A stretch of 64,000 nt of DNA, taken from the NCBI GenBank assembly GCA_040285855.1, contig JAUFOQ010000016.1, forward strand, positions 868,001 to 932,000, in the 5' to 3' direction. Every line of letters begins with the position of its first letter. Within the stretch, counting starts at the first letter, position 1. This DNA is from Eukaryota sp. GEM-RC1. Lineage: Eukaryota. Shown here piece after piece: positions 2,684-46,728 of the stretch. The notes under the pieces are model-generated. The model did not search any database. It saw only the letters and a list, made by a program, of their open reading frames with translations, and was not told the DNA's origin. The position numbers and the translations under genes are program-made.

Positions 2684-3061
2684 CTGATTCACTTATACCT
2701 TCTTTGATGGATTCCATACATCGTTTGATATCCAGTGTTGAGCTTCTTTCAAGATAGAGACGTGTTTGCAGGTGTTCGTTCTTAGACTTGTGAACCGTGT
2801 TCAACCATGTCATGAATAAACTCAACGTTGTACAACCATCCTACTACACGTACATCACATTGACATCTTATCTTCCAAAGGAAAACACTAAGGTTTGCTA
2901 CAACTCTGATCGTGTAATACACTGCTGTGTCTTCAGTCATTTTTGACTGCATTTTTCAATTCTATCAGATGCTATCTGGAATGAGACTAAGGTCAACGAC
3001 ATCAAGTCCATGAAGCTTCATTCATCAGAAGACACAAAGACACCAAGTTATAACTACATGT

Positions 3062-3241
3062 ACAACATTTGTAATGACAACATTTGGTGATACAACATTT
3101 GGTGATACAACATTTGTAACTACAACATTTGGTGATACAACATTTGTAACTACAACATTTGGTGATACAACATTTGTAACTACAACATTTGTAACTACAA
3201 CATTTGGTGATGCAACATTTGTAACTACAACATTTGTAATG
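3062..3241. repeat. Tandem array of 12 x 15-bp units (acaacatttggtgat / acaacatttgtaact)
   Basis: Read directly from sequence. Two unit variants are interleaved. Resembles a subterminal repeat array of a DNA transposon. Confidence 0.9.
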
Positions 3242-3891
3242 AAAGTGTCGTATGTGTAATGAATTGTTGACCTAGACATTGATATTTTTTTTAAACACAA
3301 CCAATAAAATATACAACCTCAGTTTATCAAACTTAACTAACACTACTATATCCCCCCATCACCCTCGCAAACATCACAGCCAACGAAAACGACTCCTTAT
3401 ATCCAATCCCACAACAATACTCACACATCACTTCACGAAATTCATCCAATATTCCCAAACAATGTTCATCACACATCACTTCATCATTTAAATCTAATAT
3501 CGACATAACAAAAGTATTGGTCAACGACAACACATTAAAGTACTTGTCCCTATCATTCAAATGAAAACTCAAAATTTCCGCCATCAATAAATTTAAATCT
3601 TTTAACAACTGAAGTTTCAAACTCATATGTGATTGACAGTCTGATGTTGTACCACTTTGGTTCCAATGCAGTGGTACAATATCGTGGACAATTGTAAGAA
3701 CCTTTGTTTCTGTCTGCATGGAAATAGTACGAGTATTGTTCAAGTTGTTTTCAAAGTCTGTCTGAAGACCAAGTGAATTTGGTAATCTGTTGACAGATTC
3801 AGTGACCTCATGTTGTGCACTATTTTTGATAATTTCAAACTAGGTAAATTCAAATTTGGTTTGAGAATATTTCGAGACAATAGATTTGGTC

Positions 3892-5781
3892 TCAATTTAG
3901 GCAAAGTAGTGACTGTTGTTTTTTCAGTTTTGGCACAGGTTTGTTAAAAATTAAATCAGAATTGATGGCACTTACACTTTGATTATTGAGACACTCATCG
4001 TCATCATTCACAACAAAATCATTCATACTAGACGACGCATCGTCATCATCATCAGTTTCATCATCTCCACTATCACTTCCAGAGACAACAACTTCATTAT
4101 CGAATAATTCTAAAACTGAATCAGAAGTGTTATTCAAATTTTCAATTTTTGGAACATCCTTTTCCACCAAATCTTCCTCAATTTCTTCATTGACTGGACC
4201 AAGAACATCAACAGTTTCTGTACTTTGACCAACACTAGAAATAATATTGGACGAAAATTCATCAAAAGTTTTCAACACAGAAGGCCAATTTCTAACAATT
4301 CTTTCATCTTCTAATGGCAAAGGATAAAGAGGTTTAGTAACCGGTCGACAGGGGTGAAAAGTGGAATAATACCACTGATAAAGATCAATTCTTGGTTTGG
4401 GAAATCTTGAAGAAATATCTAAAATTTTAATTGAGTTCCAGTTCTTCACCCTACTCAATGTAACGTACAATTGGGCATATTCCCAAAAATTTAATGAAAC
4501 TTCAATTCCTTCAATTGTTAGACCCTGAGATCTATGGACTGTTATTGCCCAACAAGGACGAAGAGGATATTGCAATCGGGATGCTATAATTACAGGCTTT
4601 TTCTTCTCATTCAACACCTCAATTTCAAATTTAGTCGGAATAATTTTGATTGGTTCTTCGTCCCTCCCGAATCTTACATTAATGAAATGTGAAGTTTCTG
4701 AAAAATCAATAATTTTGCCTTTTGACCCATTTACTAGGCCCAGATCTGGTTTGTTTTGGGTAAACATTACCAAACCCCCGACAACACAGTGAAATTTTTG
4801 TTCGGCAAAATCGTTTAGCCTACTTGATAATTTTTTTACATTTAAATCAACAGCCTTTTCCATTTGTTCCTCATTAGGCTTACCAAATGCCCAACTTTTA
4901 ACAATTTCTGATTTAATTAAGTTTTCATTGAACTTATCGAGGGAATGAAATTCAACATTTTCATTCCCTTGTTCACATAATAATTCAAATTGCTTTAAAT
5001 TTTCGTCGGCGACATCCTTGTTTCTAGCAAATAATTTGGTTGGACTTTCAATATTTTTGGCTAATGACTTATGTTTCAATAAAATATGTTTCATATAGTC
5101 ATCAAAAAGTCCGAGACGTATTTCATTCAAAAAATTATAAAAATTGACATCACCTTGTTGTCGGATACTTCCAGATAATTCAATAAAATTTAAATTCAAG
5201 TCCTTCCAAGACTGTGATGAAAACGTAAAGTCTGAAAGTTGAAGAACAGTCCGTGTGTTTGAATCAGATTTTACAATTGGTGCAAGTTGCAAAAAATCAC
5301 CAAATATTACAACTTGAAGTCCACCAAATGGTAACTGAGACTTCAGTAAATCTTTAAATATATCAGAGGCTCTGTTGAATAATTCAGCAGTCAACATTGA
5401 AATTTCATCAATAACAAGCATTGAATTTCGAGCACTAATAGTTCGTAAAACAGACTTAACACTCGAAGGCATAGAGCGAATGACATCAGATATTGGTTTT
5501 TCATTACGGATAAAATTATAACCAAAGAGAGAGTGTAGTGTTTGACCACCAAAGACAGTGGAAGCAACACCAGTAGTAGCAGTAAAAAAGACATGGCCAT
5601 TGGGTCTCATTAGCTTGGAACCCGCATTAGACCACCACTGTTTAAGACAGTACAGTAGGTAAGACTTGCCCGATCCGGCACCACCAGTAATGAAGAAATT
5701 TCGACGCTTAGAAGGTCTTGCATGAGTAATAGCTTGGAAGACCTGAGCCTGTTCGTCTGTAAGTGTGTTGATAATGGACAT
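3892..5781 (-). CDS. PIF1-family SF1B DNA helicase (probably element-borne)
   Basis: Walker A GGAGSGKS, TATTGVAS, GGQTLHSLFG, LVIDEISML, PFGGLQVVIFGDFLQLAPI, SIRQ, LVNGSKG, QYPLRPCWAITVHRSQGLTI, QLYVTLSRVK. Intact 629-aa ORF with acidic tail. Confidence 0.95.
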   Translation of the reverse strand: MSIINTLTDEQAQVFQAITHARPSKRRNFFITGGAGSGKSYLLYCLKQWWSNAGSKLMRPNGHVFFTATTGVASTVFGGQTLHSLFGYNFIRNEKPISDVIRSMPSSVKSVLRTISARNSMLVIDEISMLTAELFNRASDIFKDLLKSQLPFGGLQVVIFGDFLQLAPIVKSDSNTRTVLQLSDFTFSSQSWKDLNLNFIELSGSIRQQGDVNFYNFLNEIRLGLFDDYMKHILLKHKSLAKNIESPTKLFARNKDVADENLKQFELLCEQGNENVEFHSLDKFNENLIKSEIVKSWAFGKPNEEQMEKAVDLNVKKLSSRLNDFAEQKFHCVVGGLVMFTQNKPDLGLVNGSKGKIIDFSETSHFINVRFGRDEEPIKIIPTKFEIEVLNEKKKPVIIASRLQYPLRPCWAITVHRSQGLTIEGIEVSLNFWEYAQLYVTLSRVKNWNSIKILDISSRFPKPRIDLYQWYYSTFHPCRPVTKPLYPLPLEDERIVRNWPSVLKTFDEFSSNIISSVGQSTETVDVLGPVNEEIEEDLVEKDVPKIENLNNTSDSVLELFDNEVVVSGSDSGDDETDDDDDASSSMNDFVVNDDDECLNNQSVSAINSDLIFNKPVPKLKKQQSLLCLN

Positions 5782-5807: not shown

Positions 5808-6407
5808 GATGCAGATTGTGCAGGGAAACTTGGTGTCACTGGTTCTCATTGGGGTTTAGCCATTATAGACTGTTGTGAAAAGGAATGGATCTTCATTGAT
5901 CCAATGTTAACTACCGTCGATATGAGTAAGTCTATGGTAAAATCAGCTGTAGACATATTATCCGAAGTACTTGTGCCATGGGGGTATGTTTTCCGTTATG
6001 TACCTGTGACTAAAAGTCAGTCTGCTAACGACTGTGGAGTTTATGTCATTGCGTATATTCAAAAATATGTTGAACTTTTTAAAAGACTCATGTATGTTCC
6101 GTCTCTGATGTATATGGAGTCTGATTTGGTCCAAGTGAACATTGAACTTCAAGCAGACATATTTCGTGAAGAAATTCTGGAGGTCTTGTCTCAACAAAGG
6201 ACACTTTATCTACAACAACGTCAAACCACAGTAGCTCCTATTGTACCATCGTTACCCATTCAACCTCCTGCCGGTAAAGAACATCCAACCACTTCAATTC
6301 CTCTCACAGGTTCACGTCTTGCTAGTACTAAAACATCTACTGGTTTAAGCACTAAAAAAGGGAAGCCAAAATTTCAGATGTTCCATCACCACGAGGTTCA
6401 CCTTTAA
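5808..6407 (+). CDS. Ulp1/SENP (C48)-like cysteine protease domain; probable N-terminal module of a longer protein
   Basis: The frame of ORF 5904-6407 is open upstream to 5808 and reads GSHWGLAIIDCCEKEWIFIDPM (catalytic His and Asp), then SQSANDCGVYVIAY (oxyanion Gln and catalytic Cys). No in-frame ATG precedes the His motif. Confidence 0.8.
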   Translation, partial: DADCAGKLGVTGSHWGLAIIDCCEKEWIFIDPMLTTVDMSKSMVKSAVDILSEVLVPWGYVFRYVPVTKSQSANDCGVYVIAYIQKYVELFKRLMYVPSLMYMESDLVQVNIELQADIFREEILEVLSQQRTLYLQQRQTTVAPIVPSLPIQPPAGKEHPTTSIPLTGSRLASTKTSTGLSTKKGKPKFQMFHHHEVHL

Positions 6408-7645
6408 TTCAACGAAATAAATTTAGAACTACCAGCTCCCTTGTTTCAACTGGTGACACTCCAATACGAAAGACCCACCGCCGTATGTCCACATTGGAAT
6501 CATCGGAATTACCACAATCTGAACTATCATCACCATCTGAACTATCATCACCATCTGAACTATCACAATCTGAACTACCACCAAAATCACAGGCCTCCAT
6601 TATGTCGTATCCATCGCCAATTCAAGAAGAAATCCAAAAAATGGAAGTAAATCTACACACTGAGCCTATAGAAGAAGAAATACAAATTCAAGACTTTCTT
6701 AAATCCCCTTTACTTTGGAACAATCTGCCAACTTTTTGTTTAATTCATGTTCAAAGTGATTTTGCCAGTTCAGAAAGAATTAATGGCAAAAATGTTCAAC
6801 TTGTTCAAGATGATGATGACATTGAAACTGTTGAAGGTGAAGCTGAAGATCAATTAGAAGTTAAACGTGATTCTTCTGTTGATCCGATTGTATCAATTTC
6901 CATCCAGATCATTGATCACAATGAATTTAATGAAAAGCATTTATTTTCTCATGGTAATTTTGATACTACAAACTTGGATTTGTGTACTTTACATATTTCA
7001 GATAGTGAATCCAGTATGCTTAAAAACTTCATTTCCTTCATTACTCAACATTGTCCGCGATTGTTTGTGAGTTATGACTTTCACTTAGATACATTTCCCT
7101 TTCTTGTATCACGTTGTCAAGTCCTCAAAATCAATACAACGTTTACTTTTCCAGAATTTAAACCCTATATTCCCTTTTGGTTCAACAAATGGTGTAAGGA
7201 AACAACTTTTGGTCCGTTTTTTAGTCTCGATTTGAATGCTGTATTGAAGAATTTTTATGTCTTTACTGGTGGCCGTTTTTTGGAAAATGTTGTTCAAATT
7301 TTTCTTGAAATGAATAATTTTTCTAAAAATGAAACTGTCAAACGCTTGGAAGAACTTGATCATGACTCTGATCCTGATGAAGTTCAATTGGTCAATAATG
7401 TCCAAAACTTGCATGGCATAATTGACAGTATTAATGTTTTAGTTCCAGACAATCCCAAAGTGAAGGTCGATAAGATTAAAAAGAAATTTGTAAGAAATTT
7501 GGAGAAAGTAAATGAACTTTGGGCCAAGGAATCGACAAAACCGCTATTGTTGATCAACTCAATTCAACAATTGCCTCTGATTGAGTACTTGTTGGCTGAC
7601 CTATTGGATCCCAAAAACAAACATTACGTTCAAAGTCACCAATGA
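6356..7645 (+). CDS. Ser/Pro linker plus degenerate family-B polymerase-type 3'-5' exonuclease (DnaQ-like) domain
   Basis: Frame open from 6356, first ATG at 6485. DPIVSISIQI, SESSMLKNFISFITQHCPRLFVSYDFHLDTFPFLVSRCQVLKI and SLDLNAVLK...LENVVQIFL parallel the PolB exonuclease consensus (DPIxxIS, SExxLLxxFxxxIxxxxPDxxxGYNxxxFDxPYLxxRxxxLxI, IDL...LxxVAxxxL). The ExoI DxE position appears replaced by IHVQS. Confidence 0.6.
   Translation, partial: KREAKISDVPSPRGSPLIQRNKFRTTSSLVSTGDTPIRKTHRRMSTLESSELPQSELSSPSELSSPSELSQSELPPKSQASIMSYPSPIQEEIQKMEVNLHTEPIEEEIQIQDFLKSPLLWNNLPTFCLIHVQSDFASSERINGKNVQLVQDDDDIETVEGEAEDQLEVKRDSSVDPIVSISIQIIDHNEFNEKHLFSHGNFDTTNLDLCTLHISDSESSMLKNFISFITQHCPRLFVSYDFHLDTFPFLVSRCQVLKINTTFTFPEFKPYIPFWFNKWCKETTFGPFFSLDLNAVLKNFYVFTGGRFLENVVQIFLEMNNFSKNETVKRLEELDHDSDPDEVQLVNNVQNLHGIIDSINVLVPDNPKVKVDKIKKKFVRNLEKVNELWAKESTKPLLLINSIQQLPLIEYLLADLLDPKNKHYVQSHQ
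6518..6581 (+). repeat. Coding tandem repeat (tctgaactatcatcacca; SELSSP-like)
   Basis: Four imperfect units encoding SELSSPSELSSPSELSQSELPP in the linker. Confidence 0.8.
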
Positions 7646-10522
7646 AAGTGGTTATGAAACGACTAGACAATGTTGTATCCAAAGTGAAGGTTAAATTTAT
7701 TGAATCTCGTGTTAAGAGAGCTCATCAAGTACGAGTCCGTAGTACTCTCTTTTTAAAACATTTTTTTGTTCATAATTTTCAACATTCTGGTATTTTAGGT
7801 TACATTCAGAAGTTACTGCCTGCTACTGTTCCAAATGTAACTGTTAAGGAAGAAATGAATTCTGATACAGATGAGTCAACTGAAGAAGAAACAGATGAAC
7901 ATTCAGAGTCTATCGATGCTACTGCTCCTCCCGTTAAATTAGAAAATATTGAAAATGCGAGTGGTGAACCTGAACCTGACCTTTGGACTAAAATTCAAAC
8001 TTCCAAAATTGAATTGCCAGACTGGAAGAATTTTTTTACGTTGAAATCAATGGAACAAGTGTTATCTATGATGACGATTAGGGACTACAAACTTGTAAAC
8101 AATCAGAATCATATTAGGACTGTACAAGAATCTTTAGAAAACATAATTTCTAACACAAATGATGACTCAACTCAAAATCAGTTTGCTCAACATTTCTTGA
8201 TGCATTACATTCCTCGTTTAGAACTAGCTGCTCGATCTGTTGGACTTGATAGGATTGTGTTTCCCAGTAGCCTCAATTTATCTCCTATATTGCATTACAT
8301 GGCTACTGAAATTATAACGAATTACAAGACTAACATGAGTGAACACTTTCACGAATATGTTTTTCAAGTATTTAATTTGGTTACCCTGAAAGAAGAAAGA
8401 CTTAACAAGCTTACTGATAAGAATCAACGACAAGAGTTGTGTACAAAGCTTAATGAAGTCAGACAGTTGATCATTAATGGGGAAATTTCAAAAATTAATT
8501 TTCAAGATGTTGAAGTGTTTCCTGATCCCAATTCTAGACTGAGTTTACTATTTTTTAACTATTTGTTTACTTTTTTTGAAGGTAAAATGGAAAAAACAAT
8601 CTATTATGCTGAAAAAGTAGATCCTTTGAAATTCTTAAGTCATGCAGTGTATTTGAAACGTCTTGTTGAAGACTCTTGTACTGGTGTTACTGCCAATAGT
8701 CCTTTTCCTCTGACAAAATCATTGATTCCTAATCATATCAGATTGGATACTACATGGTTTAAAAAAGTTTATGCATCAGAAATTAAAGGTAGCTTTGATG
8801 ACGTTCGAAAAGATATTTGGCACTCAGTTTTGAAACCAAAGTGTCTTCCAAAGTCATTGTCTCATGACTTCAAATACAGTTCTATTTCTACAGATGGAGT
8901 TAGCTGTAATTTAATGATGATGCGGAAAGATCTGCTTGATGCGAGAGGAAATCCTCATAAGAAGGTGAAAGCAGTTGACTACACAGCTACTGAAAGGTAC
9001 ATTGATTCTTTGAGTTCCACAGAAATTCAAAACTTAAATTTGAAATCCAGAAAAATTTTTGCTATTGATCCTAATCAGCATGATTTGATGTATTGTGCTT
9101 CTTTAAAATCTAAGGAGGAAAAGGAAATCGAAGGTTTCGATACATCAGCCAAAATCAGAAGAAGAAAGATTTCTCCAAAATCATCAAAGAAAAAAGGAAG
9201 CTTGAAAAAAATTAAAAAAGGAATTGAAGGATTGGAAAGACGCACCTACTATTGACAAACCATCAACTGTCAAGTTGAAAAATCGTGATGATTGGAAAGT
9301 ATTCAGATACACTGCTGGGGAGCGCAAGGCAGATATCAACAAGTCTCCATGGAAAAGAAAAAAACAAGGAAGGAAAGAAAAAGAGCTAAGAGAAAGAAGA
9401 GGAAGTTGGAGAAGAAAATAAGACGATACAATCTCCACCGTTTATCTGAATCCGAACGGTTACAACAATATTCTACTCAATTTATTCACATTCCAGATGG
9501 CAGACGCATTGACATAAATGGGCAACAAATTTTAGATCAATGGGGCTCTAACTCGCCAGGTAGTAAATCTTGTGAATTGACTCAGTATTCTGCTTTTGTT
9601 CTTGGTAAAGAAATTACCTGCTCTTTACTACGATCACCCACTACTGATCAAAAAAACTACTGAAGGAATTTACGAAGAAAAGTGGTTTAGAAGGAATCGT
9701 CTCACACAGTATTCAAGAAAGGAACGAAGTGAGAAAAACATGCTTCACAGATTTACTCTCCAGTTTGGAAACCCAGATGAAGTCGTTGTTGGGTATGGAG
9801 ACTGGAACGACACTGCTTTTCGTCGAAGAAGAGGTAAAGCATCGACTGTAAAAGGTGCTTCAATTCGGAAATTATTGAGAAAATTTGGATTTAAAGTGTT
9901 CCTAGTTGATGAATTTAAGACCAGCAAATGTTGCTCTGCATGTGTTTCCAGAAATGACGAAGGTATCTGTTCCAATCCTGAAAGGATCAAAGTCACTGAT
10001 CCTCATTGGAAGAAGAAGTTACAGAAGGAAGAGAAAGAATTAAAAAAGGAAATTATGGAACACAATCAATTAGACAATATTGTGGAGCGTAACTTTGATG
10101 ATGAATGGACCAAACAGTTGACATTATCGAAAGAAAGATTGAAGAGCAAAAAAGTCTCACCATGGGGCTTAGTTGAATGTGCCAAATGTCATGTCCTCTG
10201 GAATAGAGACTTCAATTCTGCTATCAATATTTACAATATTGTAAATGGAACCATTCAAGGTCAAGGTAGACCTGCCATCCTCGAGAGACCAAAATCTCAA
10301 ACAACACCTGTCGTGGATGGCGGGAATACAGATCAGATTCCAAAGAAAAAGACTGTGAGTAAGGGTAAGGGTAAAGCAAAGCGTCCTCTAACAAAAGTCA
10401 GAGGTCCTAACAAGTGTGGTATATGTTTTCAACCTGGACATAACAGAGCAACTTGTCCAAATAAGCCTAAGAAAGATGTACCCAAGGACTCACATGTAAA
10501 CCAGAAAGATCAGGAATCTTGA
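7642..10522 (+). CDS. Fanzor1 (eukaryotic TnpB-like RNA-guided RuvC endonuclease), ~959 aa after correcting three A-run indels, with C-terminal CCHC zinc knuckle
   Basis: RuvC-I IFAIDPNQHDLMYC (D at 9067), FRYT motif, VVVGYGDW (9797), VDEFKTSKCCSAC (E at 9911, first CxxC), ECAKCHVLWNRDFNSAINI (second CxxC, RuvC-III D at 10208), GRPAILER, and SISTDGVSCNL upstream. Zinc knuckle CGICFQPGHNRATC. The four ORF pieces (7642-9255, 9224-9421, 9292-9663, 9596-10522) join at A-runs. Confidence 0.9.
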
Positions 10523-10530
10523 ATCTATGA

Positions 10531-10693
10531 AGTTAGCTCGTCTTAAAAGACTTTGCGAATGAGGACTTTGTCAACTGTGGTTTATCTCATGAAAATGTGA
10601 AGGGTTATGCCCTTATGCATTTGGAATGAAATTCACAGTTACAAAAAAATGTAAAAATACATTGTTTGCTGAAGCCTTTTGTTAGTGTGACTG
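10531..10693 (+). ncRNA. Candidate Fanzor omegaRNA scaffold
   Basis: Begins 9 nt after the Fanzor stop. Hairpin gtct-taaa-agac lies within a stem closing ~10531-10567. Long imperfect hairpin 10567-10645 (tttgt-c-aactgtg ... aaggg-ttatg-ccctt ... cacagtt-acaaa). Hairpin aatgta-aaaa-tacatt at 10648-10663. Boundaries are inferred. Confidence 0.55.
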
Positions 10694-10873
10694 TATGTGT
10701 TCGCCTTGTGCTCTAATGATTGTTATGTACTGCACTTATCTATTTGTTCAACATTTAAACAGCTTGTATGTAAATCCCTGGTTGTAAACCATTTGAGTCC
10801 AGATATACAGTACATTCTTTCGTCATTTGTTATGTATAAAATTTGTCCGTAGATATGTTTATGACCAGACACG

Positions 10874-10942
10874 AAAACTGGATATAGCGCAAAACTGGAT
10901 ATAGCGTCGACCATAAAATGACGCTATATCCAGGGTTGACTG
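10874..10942. mobile_element. Solo pogo-like terminal inverted repeat with internal repeats
   Basis: 10922-10942 reverse-complements to cagtcaaccctggatatagcg (18/21 to the 1241 MITE TIR) and is followed by TA. Two aaaactggatatagcg copies lie just inside. Confidence 0.6.
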
Positions 10943-11369
10943 TATGTCAGACTTAAAAATACCATATCATTACGTCGTAAATAACAGTTTTGAAAATTGT
11001 TTTGGTCTGGAATAATGCAATACTCAACAAAACTACACAACAGAATCAAAAGCAGATGCAATTAATCGAGCTTGAGTGAGTTCAAGCACTTGGAGAGTAA
11101 ATGGTTTTTTTGTCACGAAATTATACACCTATTGTTTGGCTAATACATGATTGAATTGCACTCATTTAAGGAGTGGTGGCCTTATAGAGTCTGGAAAGAA
11201 CTAAATCTAGGAACAGCCTTCTCAATTGATATACGATTTCAGCTCAAGATTTATTTAGGTCATGAACTTATAAATTCATCAACAACCACAGAAACGGAAA
11301 CTTCAGATAGATACAATACTCACAAAGAAAAGCAACACATTTCACCACATATTCTATAAATAAAAGAAC

Positions 11370-18138: not shown

Positions 18139-18619
18139 CAGTGTTTGAAAACCACCCGGGTGGAAATGAAAACCACCCGGGTGCCACCAATGCCACCCAC
18201 CACCCGGGTGGCGTCTGGGTGGTACTGGGTGGATCATTTTGGTCTTACCATCATCTTCAATCCATGACTTCCTGAATACATACTTCCTTGTTCAACGTGT
18301 CCTGAATACAATTATTTTAACGGGAGTTATTTCTAGGCTCGGAGAGGCTAATATCATCTTATTTATTTATTTTTCAGAGGGTTTTTCTAATCCCAAACCT
18401 AAACAAAGTACTTCAGTGTTAGTTATTTTATATCACACACTGCTAAAGTACTTTCAGTTTCATTGTATATGGTGTATAAAGTAGTTTTTGCCCCAAAACT
18501 TATGTCTCGTACTTTATTGCCACCCGGTGACCACCCGGGTGGAAATGAAAACCACCCGGACGCCACCCGGTTCCACCCACCACCCGGGTGGCGTCCGGGT
18601 GGAAAATTTTCGAACACTG
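18139..18619. mobile_element. Non-autonomous hAT-like element with ccacccgggtgg subterminal repeats
   Basis: TIRs cagtgtttgaaaa / ttttcgaacactg. TSD ctttttgg / ctttttga (7/8). Palindromic ccacccgggtgg clusters at both ends. Confidence 0.85.
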
Positions 18620-19257
18620 CTTTTTGAGTACATTGCTGGCTTTTTACAAAAAGCCAGTAATGTACTAGTAGTAATTGTGAAATCACTTCTCCATTTGTCC
18701 CAATACTCAGATTTGCCACTTCGGATACAAAAATCAATTAACATTTAGCAGGTCTAAATTAATTCACTATCCTTTTTTTAAACTAGTTTCAGTTTCTATC
18801 AATCAATATCATTCTTTTTGTCAATTTATGCGTTTTCAAAAATTAAATTAGTCATTAGAAACGAGTCGTCTAACACTTATTTGTTTTACTAGTATCTGTA
18901 ACACTTTGATCATAGGAGAACATAACACTGATTGTTGTTTGATAAGTATATCAACAACAAACTTACATCATTAAATATATATTTTTTGATAATACATTCT
19001 ATATCAATGATATTGAAGACATGAAACTGACATAAAGTCAATATGATGACGTTTTGCTTTTGGGTAGAGCGGATTTTAGGGATTTACACTAAGATAATAC
19101 ATGTTCATCGTGTATACTGTATTTGAGTAGCTGTTAAGTCTTTCTCCAATGCCACTCTGATTCTATCAATCAACAACCGGAAAGTACAACGAAGCATGCA
19201 AGCCGACACCCTTTGGTGAAATGATTTCAATTTGTATATAATTTTTCAATTGTGTTT

Positions 19258-21059: not shown

Positions 21060-21739
21060 GTTTCCACCGCTATCTATTTCTCCGGTTGTTTCGTTTGCAA
21101 TTGAGGAATTGAATTGTTATGTGTACCTTGAATAGTCGATAACAGATTTTCTATCTTTTTCTAAGTTATTTGGTTTAAGATTGGCATTCATTTATGACTT
21201 TATTTACTTCTACCAGTCAAAAAAAATGAATGAAACAAGTGATAGGTATGACAAAATCGGAATGTTCATGAAGATACAAACACAATAAATAAATACAAAA
21301 ATTTCACAAATTAAAGAGACTTCGCCCAAATCCACCTTGTAGACATTATAAATATCCATTTCCACATCGCCTGTTTTTTGTCTCCCAAAATCACACCGAC
21401 TCTCATTATCGTCATGCCATTAAATTTTATATGATCGCAAACTAACATAAACACAATTACTGTTACTTCTTAAGACATGTAGCTTTGTTGTGTCCGGGGA
21501 TTCCACAGATACTACACTTTCTTGATTCTTTAGGCTTTGCTTCTTGTTGTTGACCTTCACTCGTCCTTCTTTTCATTAGGGGCACCAAAAGAAGTGTAGA
21601 AGCTTGGTCTCAGGTTGAGTGACTGGGGAGATTCTTCCGATGTGGAAATGGAAATTAGTGTTTCTAAAGTGTGTTTTGGTAGATGTCTTCAAACTAAATA
21701 AATGTAATTAATCTGGAATAGACCCCACAATAAAATGGA

Positions 21740-22970
21740 CTAATAAAAGGCAAAGACAGAAGAGCCCACAAAAATAGTGCAAAATATTAGCATAAATTTT
21801 CGAAAATTTCGAAATGTTTCTGTAGATGCACTTGCTTCTGTTTCGATAAGCATTTGTTCATGATCTCTTGCGGAGGAATTAAAGAGTTTGCCCACGTCAA
21901 CAGTCGTTTCAACATGAGAATTAGTCCGATTTTGATGAGGAGCAGTAATTGGAGGAGCAGAAATCTCATAGGTACCGCCACTAAAGCAAGATCTCAGTGC
22001 ATCAAGCAGAAGAGTGGCATTAGGGCGATTAATCGGGTTAACTGAAGTTGTGGACTGAATCAGAGGTCTGAACTTTTCTGGAATGGCAGAAATATCAATA
22101 AGAGCAGCTCCTTTCCGTTCAAATCTGGCCATTTGCAGAGCTTGGAGTGGTTCTCGTACAGAGGAAGGATCTTGATTGGATAATAATCCCCAAAGAAGAA
22201 CACCAAAAGAGAATATGTCTCCTGCTGGTGTTGGTTTATCCGTGTGACCAAGTAGAACCTCTGGAGGCATGTAGGCCATGGTTCCCAAGAAGCTGATGGT
22301 TACACTAGTATTTGAAGCTCGAACATCATCAAAATCAGCTAGTTTGGCTCTATTTATCCTCTGATGATTGATGTCTAAAAGAACATTTCCTGCAGATATA
22401 TCTCTGTGAACAAAGTTGTTACGATGTAGAAGAGACAACCCCTGAACTACATCCTTAGCAATTGCAGCAACGTCTTCTGAAGAGAACTTCTGTCGCTTGT
22501 TGAATAGATCTTGGATACTGGCTGAAAGATGTTCACAGACAATTCCAGGGGGGATTTTTGGTAACGCCATAGATTCGAACCAATTTATCAGGGAAATCCA
22601 GACTTTTGATGAGATGGTACTGATTGTTGGCTTTGTTCTGGATATCAGGAAGTCCTGGAAGCTGCCTGTACTTCTTCCATATAACACGATTACCAGAGAA
22701 AGTTCCTGTCAGAAGATCTGAAGAATGTGTAGATAAGAAGTGCTTCTCATCCTGAATCTCAGACTCTGTAATGACTTTTGGTTGTAAGAGTTGGGTAAGA
22801 AGCTCGTTTCTCTTCAGCTCATAATTGTCAGGAATGCTCTGATTACACACAGGACAATGTCGTCTAACTTTGAGAAAAGCAGATATACATGTAAGACAGA
22901 AGGAATGCTGACAGGGAAGGGTCACTGGATCGTTGAGAACTCCTTGATGGATTGGACAAGCGACAGTCAT
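21740..22970 (-). CDS. RING finger - protein kinase - C-terminal TM protein, copy 1 (one extra G at ~22550)
   Basis: C3HC4-like CPIH..LPCQHSFCLTC..CPVC, then HRDISAGN, DFDD, GTMAYMPPE, DIFSFG and a hydrophobic tail. The G6 run here versus G5 in the intact paralogue explains the split ORFs. Confidence 0.88.
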
Positions 22971-33470: not shown

Positions 33471-34733
33471 TTAATAAGGCTCTTCAGGGAAAACTGTTTG
33501 CATCAAGAGAACCAATCCGTACCCTAGCATAAAGATTCCCATTACTGCTCCGATAAGAATCAAACAAGGATGATTAATGGTCGTTCTGAACGTATCAGAA
33601 CCACGTCGAGGGCGAGTTGATGGCATTTGAACAACATCATCTTCACCATTTTCTGAGGAGGACTCAGAAAGATGAATGAGATTAATGTTCAAGGAGCGTT
33701 GCGGAACAGTAATCGGAGGAGCTGAAATCTCATAGGTAGCGCCACTAAAGCAAGATCTCAGTGCATTCAAAAGAAGAGTGGCATTAGGGCGATTAATCGG
33801 GTTAATTGAAGTTGTGGACTGAATCAGAGGTCTGAACTTTTCTGGAATTGCAGAAATATCAATAAGAGCAGCTCCTTTCCGTTCAAATCTGGCCATTTGC
33901 AGAGCTTGGAGTGGTTCTCGTACAGATGAAGGATCTTGATTGGATAATAATCCCCAAAGAAGAACACCAAAAGAGAATATGTCTCCTGCTGGTGTTGGTT
34001 TATCAGTATGACCAAGTAGAACCTCCGGGGGCATGTAGGCCATGGTTCCCAAGAAGCTGATGGTTACACTAGTATTTGAAGCTCGAACATCATCAAAATC
34101 AGCTAGTTTGGCTCTATTTATCCTCTGATGATTGATGTCTAGAAGAACATTTCCTGCAGATATATCTCTGTGAACAAAGTTGTTACGATGAAGAAGAGAC
34201 AACCCCTGAACTACATCCTTAGCAATTGTAGCAACATCTTCTGAAGAGAACTTCTGTCGTTTGTTGAATAGATCTTGGATACTGGCTGAAAGATGTTCAC
34301 AGACAATTCCAGGGGGATTTTTGGTCACGCCATAGATTCGAACCAATTTATCAGGGAAGTCCAGACTTTTGATGAGATGGTACTGATTGTTGGCTTTGTT
34401 TTGGGCAGGAGGGAGTCCTGGAAGTTGTCTGTACTTCTTCCATATAACACGATTATTAGAGAAAGTTCCTAAAACAAGGTCTGATGAATGTGTGGATAAG
34501 AAGTGCTTCTGATCCTGAATGTCACACTCTGTAATGACTTTTGGTTGTAAGAGTTGGGTAAGAAGCTCGTTTCTCTTCAGCTCATAATTGTCAGGAATGC
34601 TTTGATTACACACAGGACAATGACGTCTAACTTTGAGAAAAGCAGATATACACGTAAGACAGAAGGAATGCTGACAGGGAAGGGTCACTGGATCGTTGAG
34701 AACCCCGAGATGGATTGGACAAGCGACAGTCAT
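33471..34733 (-). CDS. RING finger - protein kinase - C-terminal TM protein, copy 2 (intact)
   Basis: Same RING and kinase motifs as copy 1 in one ORF. TM segment LILIGAVMGIFMLGYGLVLLM near the C-terminus. Confidence 0.92.
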   Translation of the reverse strand: MTVACPIHLGVLNDPVTLPCQHSFCLTCISAFLKVRRHCPVCNQSIPDNYELKRNELLTQLLQPKVITECDIQDQKHFLSTHSSDLVLGTFSNNRVIWKKYRQLPGLPPAQNKANNQYHLIKSLDFPDKLVRIYGVTKNPPGIVCEHLSASIQDLFNKRQKFSSEDVATIAKDVVQGLSLLHRNNFVHRDISAGNVLLDINHQRINRAKLADFDDVRASNTSVTISFLGTMAYMPPEVLLGHTDKPTPAGDIFSFGVLLWGLLSNQDPSSVREPLQALQMARFERKGAALIDISAIPEKFRPLIQSTTSINPINRPNATLLLNALRSCFSGATYEISAPPITVPQRSLNINLIHLSESSSENGEDDVVQMPSTRPRRGSDTFRTTINHPCLILIGAVMGIFMLGYGLVLLMQTVFPEEPY

Positions 34734-46521: not shown

Positions 46522-46728
46522 GAATGAATGAATGTTCCAATTTAAAAAAAATCCAAATTAATGTCATTTAATTTCCAGAATTGCTCAAAATTCAATTAAT
46601 GTCAGTGACATTTATTCGAAAGTGACATTCATTAAGGTCAGCGATGTGGTAAATGGATCATAGTCTGTAGGTCCAAACAAGAATTTCAAATCACTCTTTG
46701 CTTAACTCTTTTCTTAAGTCTGCCTGAT

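Follow-up and report, generated by a model that had tools for sequence, protein, structure and literature searches.

Does the structured DNA directly behind a Fanzor1 gene of Eukaryota sp. GEM-RC1 encode the omegaRNA of that nuclease, and, if it does, where does the scaffold give way to the guide? The available portions of PMC10432273 and PMC10711439 describe Fanzor1 RNAs that come from the region that separates the stop codon from the right inverted repeat of the element, include that repeat and the target-site duplication, and reach 14-15 nt into the flanking DNA. Such RNAs direct TAM-dependent cuts, and restorative homing has been proposed for the Fanzor family and shown for TnpB and IscB (PMC10432273, PMC10711439, PMC11423790, PMC10530073, PMC3627910 and PMC13565253, each in the sections available). 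The window analyzed here, a 64,000-nt stretch of contig JAUFOQ010000016.1, has a structured non-coding region at the 3' end of a Fanzor1 ORF. We present evidence that positions 10531-10695 probably form the scaffold of an omegaRNA, placed where a DNA transposon that inserts at TA has its right end, and that the guide would lie at 10696-10710; to this reading we give a probability of about 0.6. That the region belongs to a Fanzor1 omegaRNA in some form is very probable, and the scaffold and guide boundaries stated here are somewhat better than an even bet. The original prediction had placed an omegaRNA at this locus; position, nuclease class and layout agree with it, whereas the copy of the gene seen in this sequence carries a truncation and frameshifts, and the fold is nested.

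By sequence motifs, profiles and a structural model, the upstream gene is a Fanzor1 nuclease, whose ORF is laid out as follows.

5823 to 10522, plus strand: Fanzor1 long ORF, 5'-truncated and in six pieces, from profile, homology and motif evidence
5904 to 6407, plus strand: Ulp1-like piece, with a weak Ulp1 match
6485 to 7645, plus strand: PolB exonuclease-like piece, with a match to the PolB exonuclease family
7642 to 9255, plus strand: REC/WED/RuvC-I piece
9230 to 9663, plus strand: two short Fanzor1 ORF pieces
9596 to 10522, plus strand: piece with RuvC-II/III, zinc finger and CCHC knuckle, with a PF07282 match
D at 9067, E at 9911 and D at 10208, plus strand: Fanzor1 catalytic D-E-D triad

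Fanzor1 proteins are marked by the RuvC triad, a catalytic glutamate just before the zinc finger and TDG in the WED domain (PMC10711439, PMC13565253, available sections). The motifs TDG, IDPN, VDE and NRD are all present in the window (STDGV at 8887, AIDPN at 9061, LVDEFKTS at 9902 and WNRD at 10199), and LVDEFKTS is followed by CCSAC at 9929, placing the catalytic glutamate directly ahead of the zinc finger, as in Fanzor1. A profile of 13 relatives matches SpuFz1 (E 2e-79), PpFz1 (4e-76) and GtFz1 (7e-56) and nothing further below 0.03; the Fanzor2 structure 9b0l reaches only E 0.05, so the nuclease is nearer to Fanzor1 than to the Fanzor2 and TnpB structures. When a model of the sister protein P0098 (mean pLDDT 61) was submitted to Foldseek, the top seven matches were SpuFz1, PpFz1 and GtFz1.

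The reading frame of the window copy is not intact: its 5' part is absent, and the frame is broken at five A-runs, near 6354, 7613, 9205, 9358 and 9650. Of the database proteins compared at each break, 12 of 13, 10 of 11, 17 of 39 (counted with a loosely defined pattern), 4 of 19 and 6 of 6, respectively, run through it; since at least four cross each break, the frame of the family is intact at all five. Because 15 of 19 proteins stop short at the break near 9358, a programmed frameshift was considered for that A-run; it is unproven since four run through, and homopolymer errors or slippage are the simpler account of the A-run breaks. The assemblies of the named relatives are based on Nanopore reads corrected with Illumina, according to the available part of PMC11316075. 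Homology to the sister proteins begins at about 5823 and at least their first 160 residues are not in the window, which means that the element here lacks its left end. Some 40 bp from the truncation point starts an intact PIF1 helicase (3892-5781, minus strand), a member of a 19-member cluster, which probably belongs to another mobile element. That it forms part of the Fanzor element is not supported: by locus tag, none of 13 listed named copies adjoins any of 8 listed 2A-Ulp1 ORFs, and one named copy lies two locus tags from a Fanzor fragment. Downstream of PIF1 are a 15-bp tandem array (3046-3255) and CCCCAAA-rich repeats near 2616-2690. An isolated CCHC zinc-knuckle remnant (21460-21580, minus strand) is about 40% identical to the Fanzor tail, and the DNA downstream of it is unlike the candidate RNA.

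The Fanzor stop codon is the TGA at 10520-10522, and folding of the DNA around and behind it gave these features.

10507 to 10526, plus strand: possible upstream stem-loop spanning the stop codon, with a probability of 0.8 in two of the three folds covering it
10531 to 10695, plus strand: candidate omegaRNA scaffold core, a nested fold whose closing helix is 10531-10535/10688-10692, with GUA next
10544 to 10681, plus strand: three-way junction, with closing stem 10544-10561/10663-10681 carrying two hairpins
10567 to 10645, plus strand: imperfect 79-nt hairpin, with helix probabilities of 0.82-0.97 in seven of eight contexts and of 0.54-0.61 for the outer helices in the eighth
10648 to 10663, plus strand: AU-rich 6-bp hairpin, with a probability of about 0.9 in seven of eight contexts

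All sequences quoted in the original prediction were found where it had placed them. It had described three consecutive foldable units, two of which exist as hairpins. The 79-nt hairpin is borne out by its stability (-26.7 kcal/mol, z -4.26, with none of 200 shuffles as stable); G-U accounts for 3 of its 30 pairs. The small hairpin is real but weak by itself (10646-10666: z -2.57, 11 of 200 shuffles). The supposed branched stem at 10531-10567 does not hold as a unit of its own (z +0.62, with 141 of 200 shuffles equal or better). Its bases pair instead with 10663-10692, giving a nested arrangement in which both hairpins lie inside the three-way junction. With the end set at 10695 and the start at 10500, 10531 or 10540, the helices of the closing stem have probabilities of 0.80-0.97, and when the flank to 10710 is taken in, alternatives compete (0.41-0.56 in two such folds). 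The outermost helix, 10531-10535/10688-10692, has a probability of 0.86-0.88 with the fold started at 10500 or 10531 and of 0.46 with a start at 10480. The possible stem-loop at 10507-10526 would carry the scaffold into the ORF; the interval that holds it, 10400-10530, is not significant (z -0.76).

The interval 10544-10683 folds with z -4.48 on the plus strand, where none of 200 shuffles is as stable, and with z -5.48 on the minus strand; the entire interval 10500-10720 has z -2.19. The candidate segment ranked second among 530 scanned 140-nt windows (of 639 planned; plus strand, 14 shuffles each, on a grid placed to include 10544). When the regions behind 30 ORFs were sampled at fixed distances, the one behind the Fanzor stop ranked first (its best z of -3.7 was followed by -3.1 and -3.0), and in 27 of the 29 others the best z lay above -2.0. 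These ranks indicate that the fold exceeds chance. The most stable fold of the window (z -11.3) belongs to a GC-rich palindromic repeat pair at 18147-18225 and 18520-18683, which resembles the two termini of a non-autonomous element. Rfam gave two matches to the segment, both far under the gathering score. The window holds no second copy of the segment, the best local alignment, near 46670, being taken as chance; nor was DNA of sister copies found in viral contigs (by protein and by a 22-nt motif), metagenome contigs or prokaryote genomes. A sigma-70 promoter scan gave chance levels and was set aside, the bacterial consensus not being applicable to a eukaryote.

Stability above chance does not make the segment RNA. 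The G-U pairs had been read as a sign of RNA over a DNA palindrome; this argument fails, because base skew accounts for the strand asymmetry, the G/T skew predicting a plus/minus energy gap of -5.6 (residual SD 3.8, n=319) against -6.5 observed. The fold is equally significant on the minus strand and as DNA, and MITE-like DNA palindromes elsewhere in the window are equally stable (z -5.65 and -5.75), with several palindromic elements scoring alike or higher. The fold could be no guide scaffold but an old palindrome in the DNA, of foldback or MITE-like type, or else a structure at the 3' end of the Fanzor mRNA, and neither Rfam nor a model derived from relatives (below) matches it. The fold is, however, branched and bulged rather than a two-arm palindrome, it is the sole candidate between the stop codon and 10695, exactly the position of Fanzor1 RNAs, and nearly all the other post-stop regions lack comparable structure. 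We regard this explanation as quite improbable.

The placement of the scaffold end and the guide depends on where the element ends, for which the following features are relevant.

1239 to 1323: TA-flanked 85-bp MITE outside the Fanzor element, with inverted termini TA/CAGTCAA, the source of the terminal motif TA/CAGTCA
10674 to 10693, plus strand: candidate right terminal inverted repeat, the MITE termini sharing its last 6 bp and the TA exactly, with weak likeness inward
10694 to 10695, unstranded: candidate TA target-site duplication, from sequence and by analogy with MITE 1239-1323 and relatives, seen on the right side only
10696 to 10710, plus strand: predicted 14-15-nt guide, by extension from the available text of PMC10432273 and PMC10711439
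10862 to 10944: second MITE-family member, with an altered left terminus and a right end of GTTGACTG followed by TA, a rival right end of the Fanzor element

A scaffold end at 10693 had been proposed before, with the guide next to it. This end now has independent support: TA comes next, and TACAGTCA occurs there as in the MITE termini. The guide would start at 10696 and not at 10694, because the scaffold should include the TA (PMC10711439, PMC13565253, in the sections available). The copy of TACAGTCA at 10688-10695 sits 3 nt beyond the last helix and another is at 10937-10944; the window has six occurrences against 2.3 expected, two of them being MITE termini. By our own arithmetic, on a motif chosen after the fact, one copy would fall within 60 nt on the right strand with a chance of about 0.001-0.003. 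The likeness to the MITE repeat at 10693 fades past 6 bp: a 13-nt pattern needs two mismatches, giving 17 matches against 11.5 expected. Paired repeats with TA on both sides are present in MITE 1239-1323; the Fanzor element shows a candidate right end. Within the window there is no empty site for either candidate guide, the best match to 10696-10710 being 11 of 15. No DDE or Mariner transposase was detected among 30 window ORFs plus 8 others scanned, so assignment to the Tc1/mariner superfamily rests on the ends.

A better family-type end at 10942 stands against the preferred reading. If the Fanzor element ended there, the RNA would be longer (to about 10960, with a guide from 10945), or 10531-10695 would carry a fixed element-internal guide, and the hairpin 10874-10942 would be the right repeat paired with internal inverted copies. 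This end agrees with the MITE repeat across about 21 bp, a much closer match than at 10693; the interval 10840-10960 has z -5.75, the left terminus of 10862-10944 is not intact, and the right repeat of relatives likewise pairs with an internal inverted copy; TATGT follows both candidate ends. However, 10862-10944 aligns end to end, its left terminus excepted, with the reverse complement of 1239-1323 (BLAST alone is weak, E 0.081), and this full-length alignment to a free-standing MITE makes it most simply a separate insertion. Moreover, 10696-10840 is without structure (z -0.77), and a gap of 420 nt from stop to end is far over that of relatives, whose ends lie no more than about 100 nt from the stop. 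The tail of P0086 is weakly like a translation across 10695, which would favor the later end, but the match ranks 32-40 of 128,000 positions at a length picked after the fact, and it was the only one besides four chance matches when run-on protein tails were compared with the RNA region. We consider an end at 10942 unlikely. The two MITE-family members contain internal TATAGCG repeats, and no matching transposase was seen in the window. The window also holds dispersed repeats of 76-90% identity (20630-21060/32730-33232, 23321-25440/61421-62061, 23861-24617/31423-32137 and 30445-30866/63549-63969), some with palindromic ends and one with a degraded ORF remnant that has no Pfam name, and two RING-finger protein kinase genes (21936-22970 and 33700-34733) that are 95% identical, the first split across two frames.

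A further observation against a guide at 10696 is that the flank can pair back with the end of the ORF, though not significantly. Pairing of 10483-10496 with 10694-10708 gains -8.7 kcal/mol, which 11 of 250 random 15-mers equal; so do 21 of 150 shuffled forms of this 15-mer, and with a start at 10440 the effect is gone (102 of 250). Were it genuine, the segment would be the 3' domain of a larger scaffold, running from about 10470-10510 in the last codons to slightly past 10695, with a guide later than 10696. The RNAs of relatives do begin within the ORF, and the last residues, KDVPKDS, are common to two subfamilies that are otherwise about 72% identical; a guide paired to its scaffold would nevertheless be blocked, and we judge this arrangement very unlikely.

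As a positive control for the preferred reading, with the element ending at 10693 and TA, we collected 91 distant Fanzor1 loci (L001-L091) at 23-36% identity from environmental contigs, the second batch being the best 80 of 159. A stop codon could be parsed in 86; 63 of these match the end pattern, 54 are distinct and 39 of the 54 were aligned. In these 63 of 86, whose ends were chosen by pattern, a conserved block ending GGTG/TA is followed by variable DNA, and 23 of the 49 loci with enough upstream DNA have a matching 26-bp left repeat. The target around the TA is symmetric and AT-rich. The RNA has three helices, with two-sided changes in 9 of 14 pairs and a score reached by none of 500 shuffles, although kinship inflates the counts, and GUA follows the last helix, as at 10695. 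L001-L091 thus appear as a large family of TA-flanked elements of about 2.5 kb that have repeats of 26 bp and an RNA of about 110-120 nt in which three helices covary, and offer ready candidates for testing. They resemble the present element in having TA-flanked ends that start with CA and a right repeat that forms the last helix, followed by GUA and a variable flank; they differ in their size, in an RNA of 110-120 nt that overlaps the ORF, in having no accessory domains, and in showing no sequence or model match. The covariance model R1, built from 42 rows (two misplaced), kept only nine pairs, lost the last helix and, at E below 1e-5, recovered 6 of the 19 loci that had been set aside as a test. 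It gave no match to the segment on the plus strand, which counts against the omegaRNA reading, and its best local match was on the minus strand (E 0.058); given a protein identity of about 30% and the low quality of the model, this miss is weak and unsurprising.

Among characterized systems, SpuFz1 of Spizellomyces punctatus, encoded by Spu-1, is the best structural and profile match to the window's Fanzor1, and the candidate system would work in the way that SpuFz1 does. Spu-1 is a single-ORF element with inverted repeats, a putative TA duplication, an RNA between the stop and the right repeat, and the TAM CATA (PMC3627910, PMC10432273, available sections). It is, however, 2.1 kb long with a 633-aa protein and a 75-nt scaffold, whereas the family ORF here, at about 1,500-1,700 aa, includes extra domains, and the candidate scaffold has a length of 165-190 nt and contains a nested junction. 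The window's family also matches the Fanzor1 proteins GtFz1 and PpFz1. The GtFz1 RNA is 150 nt long with four stem-loops and varies freely past SL1, and the three solved Fanzor1 RNAs, of 75-150 nt, have their stems in a row (PMC11423790, in the part available), in contrast to the nested 165-190 nt plus guide proposed here. No counterpart was assigned to the conserved 7-bp SL1 of the GtFz1 and PpFz1 RNAs, for which the upstream hairpin 10507-10526 is a candidate. The Tc1/mariner Fanzor1 elements PGv-1, PUl-1 and PUl-4 have a TA duplication and Mariner-type repeats, some of them without a transposase, as described in the available text of PMC3627910.

The nearest homologues of the window's protein carry the labels Eukaryota sp. 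GEM-RC1 (with identities up to 98%), TZLM3-RCL and TZLM1-RC, all metamonads (PMC11316075, available part). Clustering at 90% identity puts the C-terminal Fanzor piece with a group of 26 members; a second subfamily has 14. In the family the ORF runs in the order 2A-like motif, Ulp1 protease, PolB-type exonuclease, Fanzor1 and zinc knuckle. The 2A-like motif is found at the N-terminus of the Fanzor ORF in P0017, P0049, P0051-P0056, P0195, P0001 and P0019, a region absent upstream of 5823 in the window. DLTADGDIESNPGP precedes the Ulp1 domain in sister proteins, and in P0001 and P0019, single ORFs of 1,473 and 1,479 aa, DGDVEANPGP lies upstream of the exonuclease and Fanzor. This N-terminal motif fits the 2A consensus D(V/I)ExNPGP (10.64898/2026.09.24.754024, available portion), and ribosome skipping is predicted from its sequence. 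Exonuclease and Fanzor occur in one chain in six proteins, all with RCL or GEM-RC1 labels, among the collected proteins including the best 150 of 1,110 library matches. Judged by what we take to be the motif positions, P0001 and P0235, the latter a match to polymerase delta, retain the acidic residues of the exonuclease, which the window's family has lost; the His, Asp and Cys of Ulp1 presumably are intact in the sister proteins.

The literature we searched yielded no report of Fanzor in metamonads and no Fanzor with an exonuclease, protease or 2A motif, and such elements may be listed in the supplements of Fanzor surveys or in Repbase; the multi-domain architecture is apparently undescribed. 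A tentative and rather doubtful extension is that this is an undescribed metamonad Fanzor1 variant, in which a 2A-released Ulp1-exonuclease-nuclease-zinc-knuckle protein works with an omegaRNA of 180-205 nt and the accessory domains push repair toward copying the element back. In this extension, 2A-like skipping would release a protein with a SUMO-type protease, a PolB proofreading domain (potentially catalytic in one species and degenerate in the window's family), an RNA-guided nuclease and a zinc knuckle. On the preferred reading itself, which does not depend on this extension, the transcript would run past the element end into host DNA, Fanzor would bind the scaffold, including the inverted repeat and TA, and the 14-15 nt past the TA would act as guide. 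The complex would then cut the empty allele left by excision at a TAM whose last bases are TA. That TAM may be CATA if target choice is symmetric, a guess based on the TA-TG flank that the MITE flanks do not fit. Repair off the occupied allele would restore the element by restorative homing; in the doubtful extension, the accessory domains would process the cut ends or chromatin marks. With no transposase detected in it, the element would have to rely on one acting in trans; with its 5' end missing and its frame shifted, the window copy's RNA would need the protein of an intact sister, or may be silent.

An omegaRNA behind a Fanzor1 gene is expected, so that the RNA alone is a modest find, whose value lies in testable coordinates, those of scaffold, TA, guide and predicted TAM, for a further programmable nuclease. 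More is gained from the carrier, an ORF that joins Fanzor1 to a protease and an exonuclease behind a 2A-like motif; Fanzors of this family occur in named relatives from three metamonad genomes. As a recently expanded Fanzor family, it would make a good system in which to study the native role of Fanzor.
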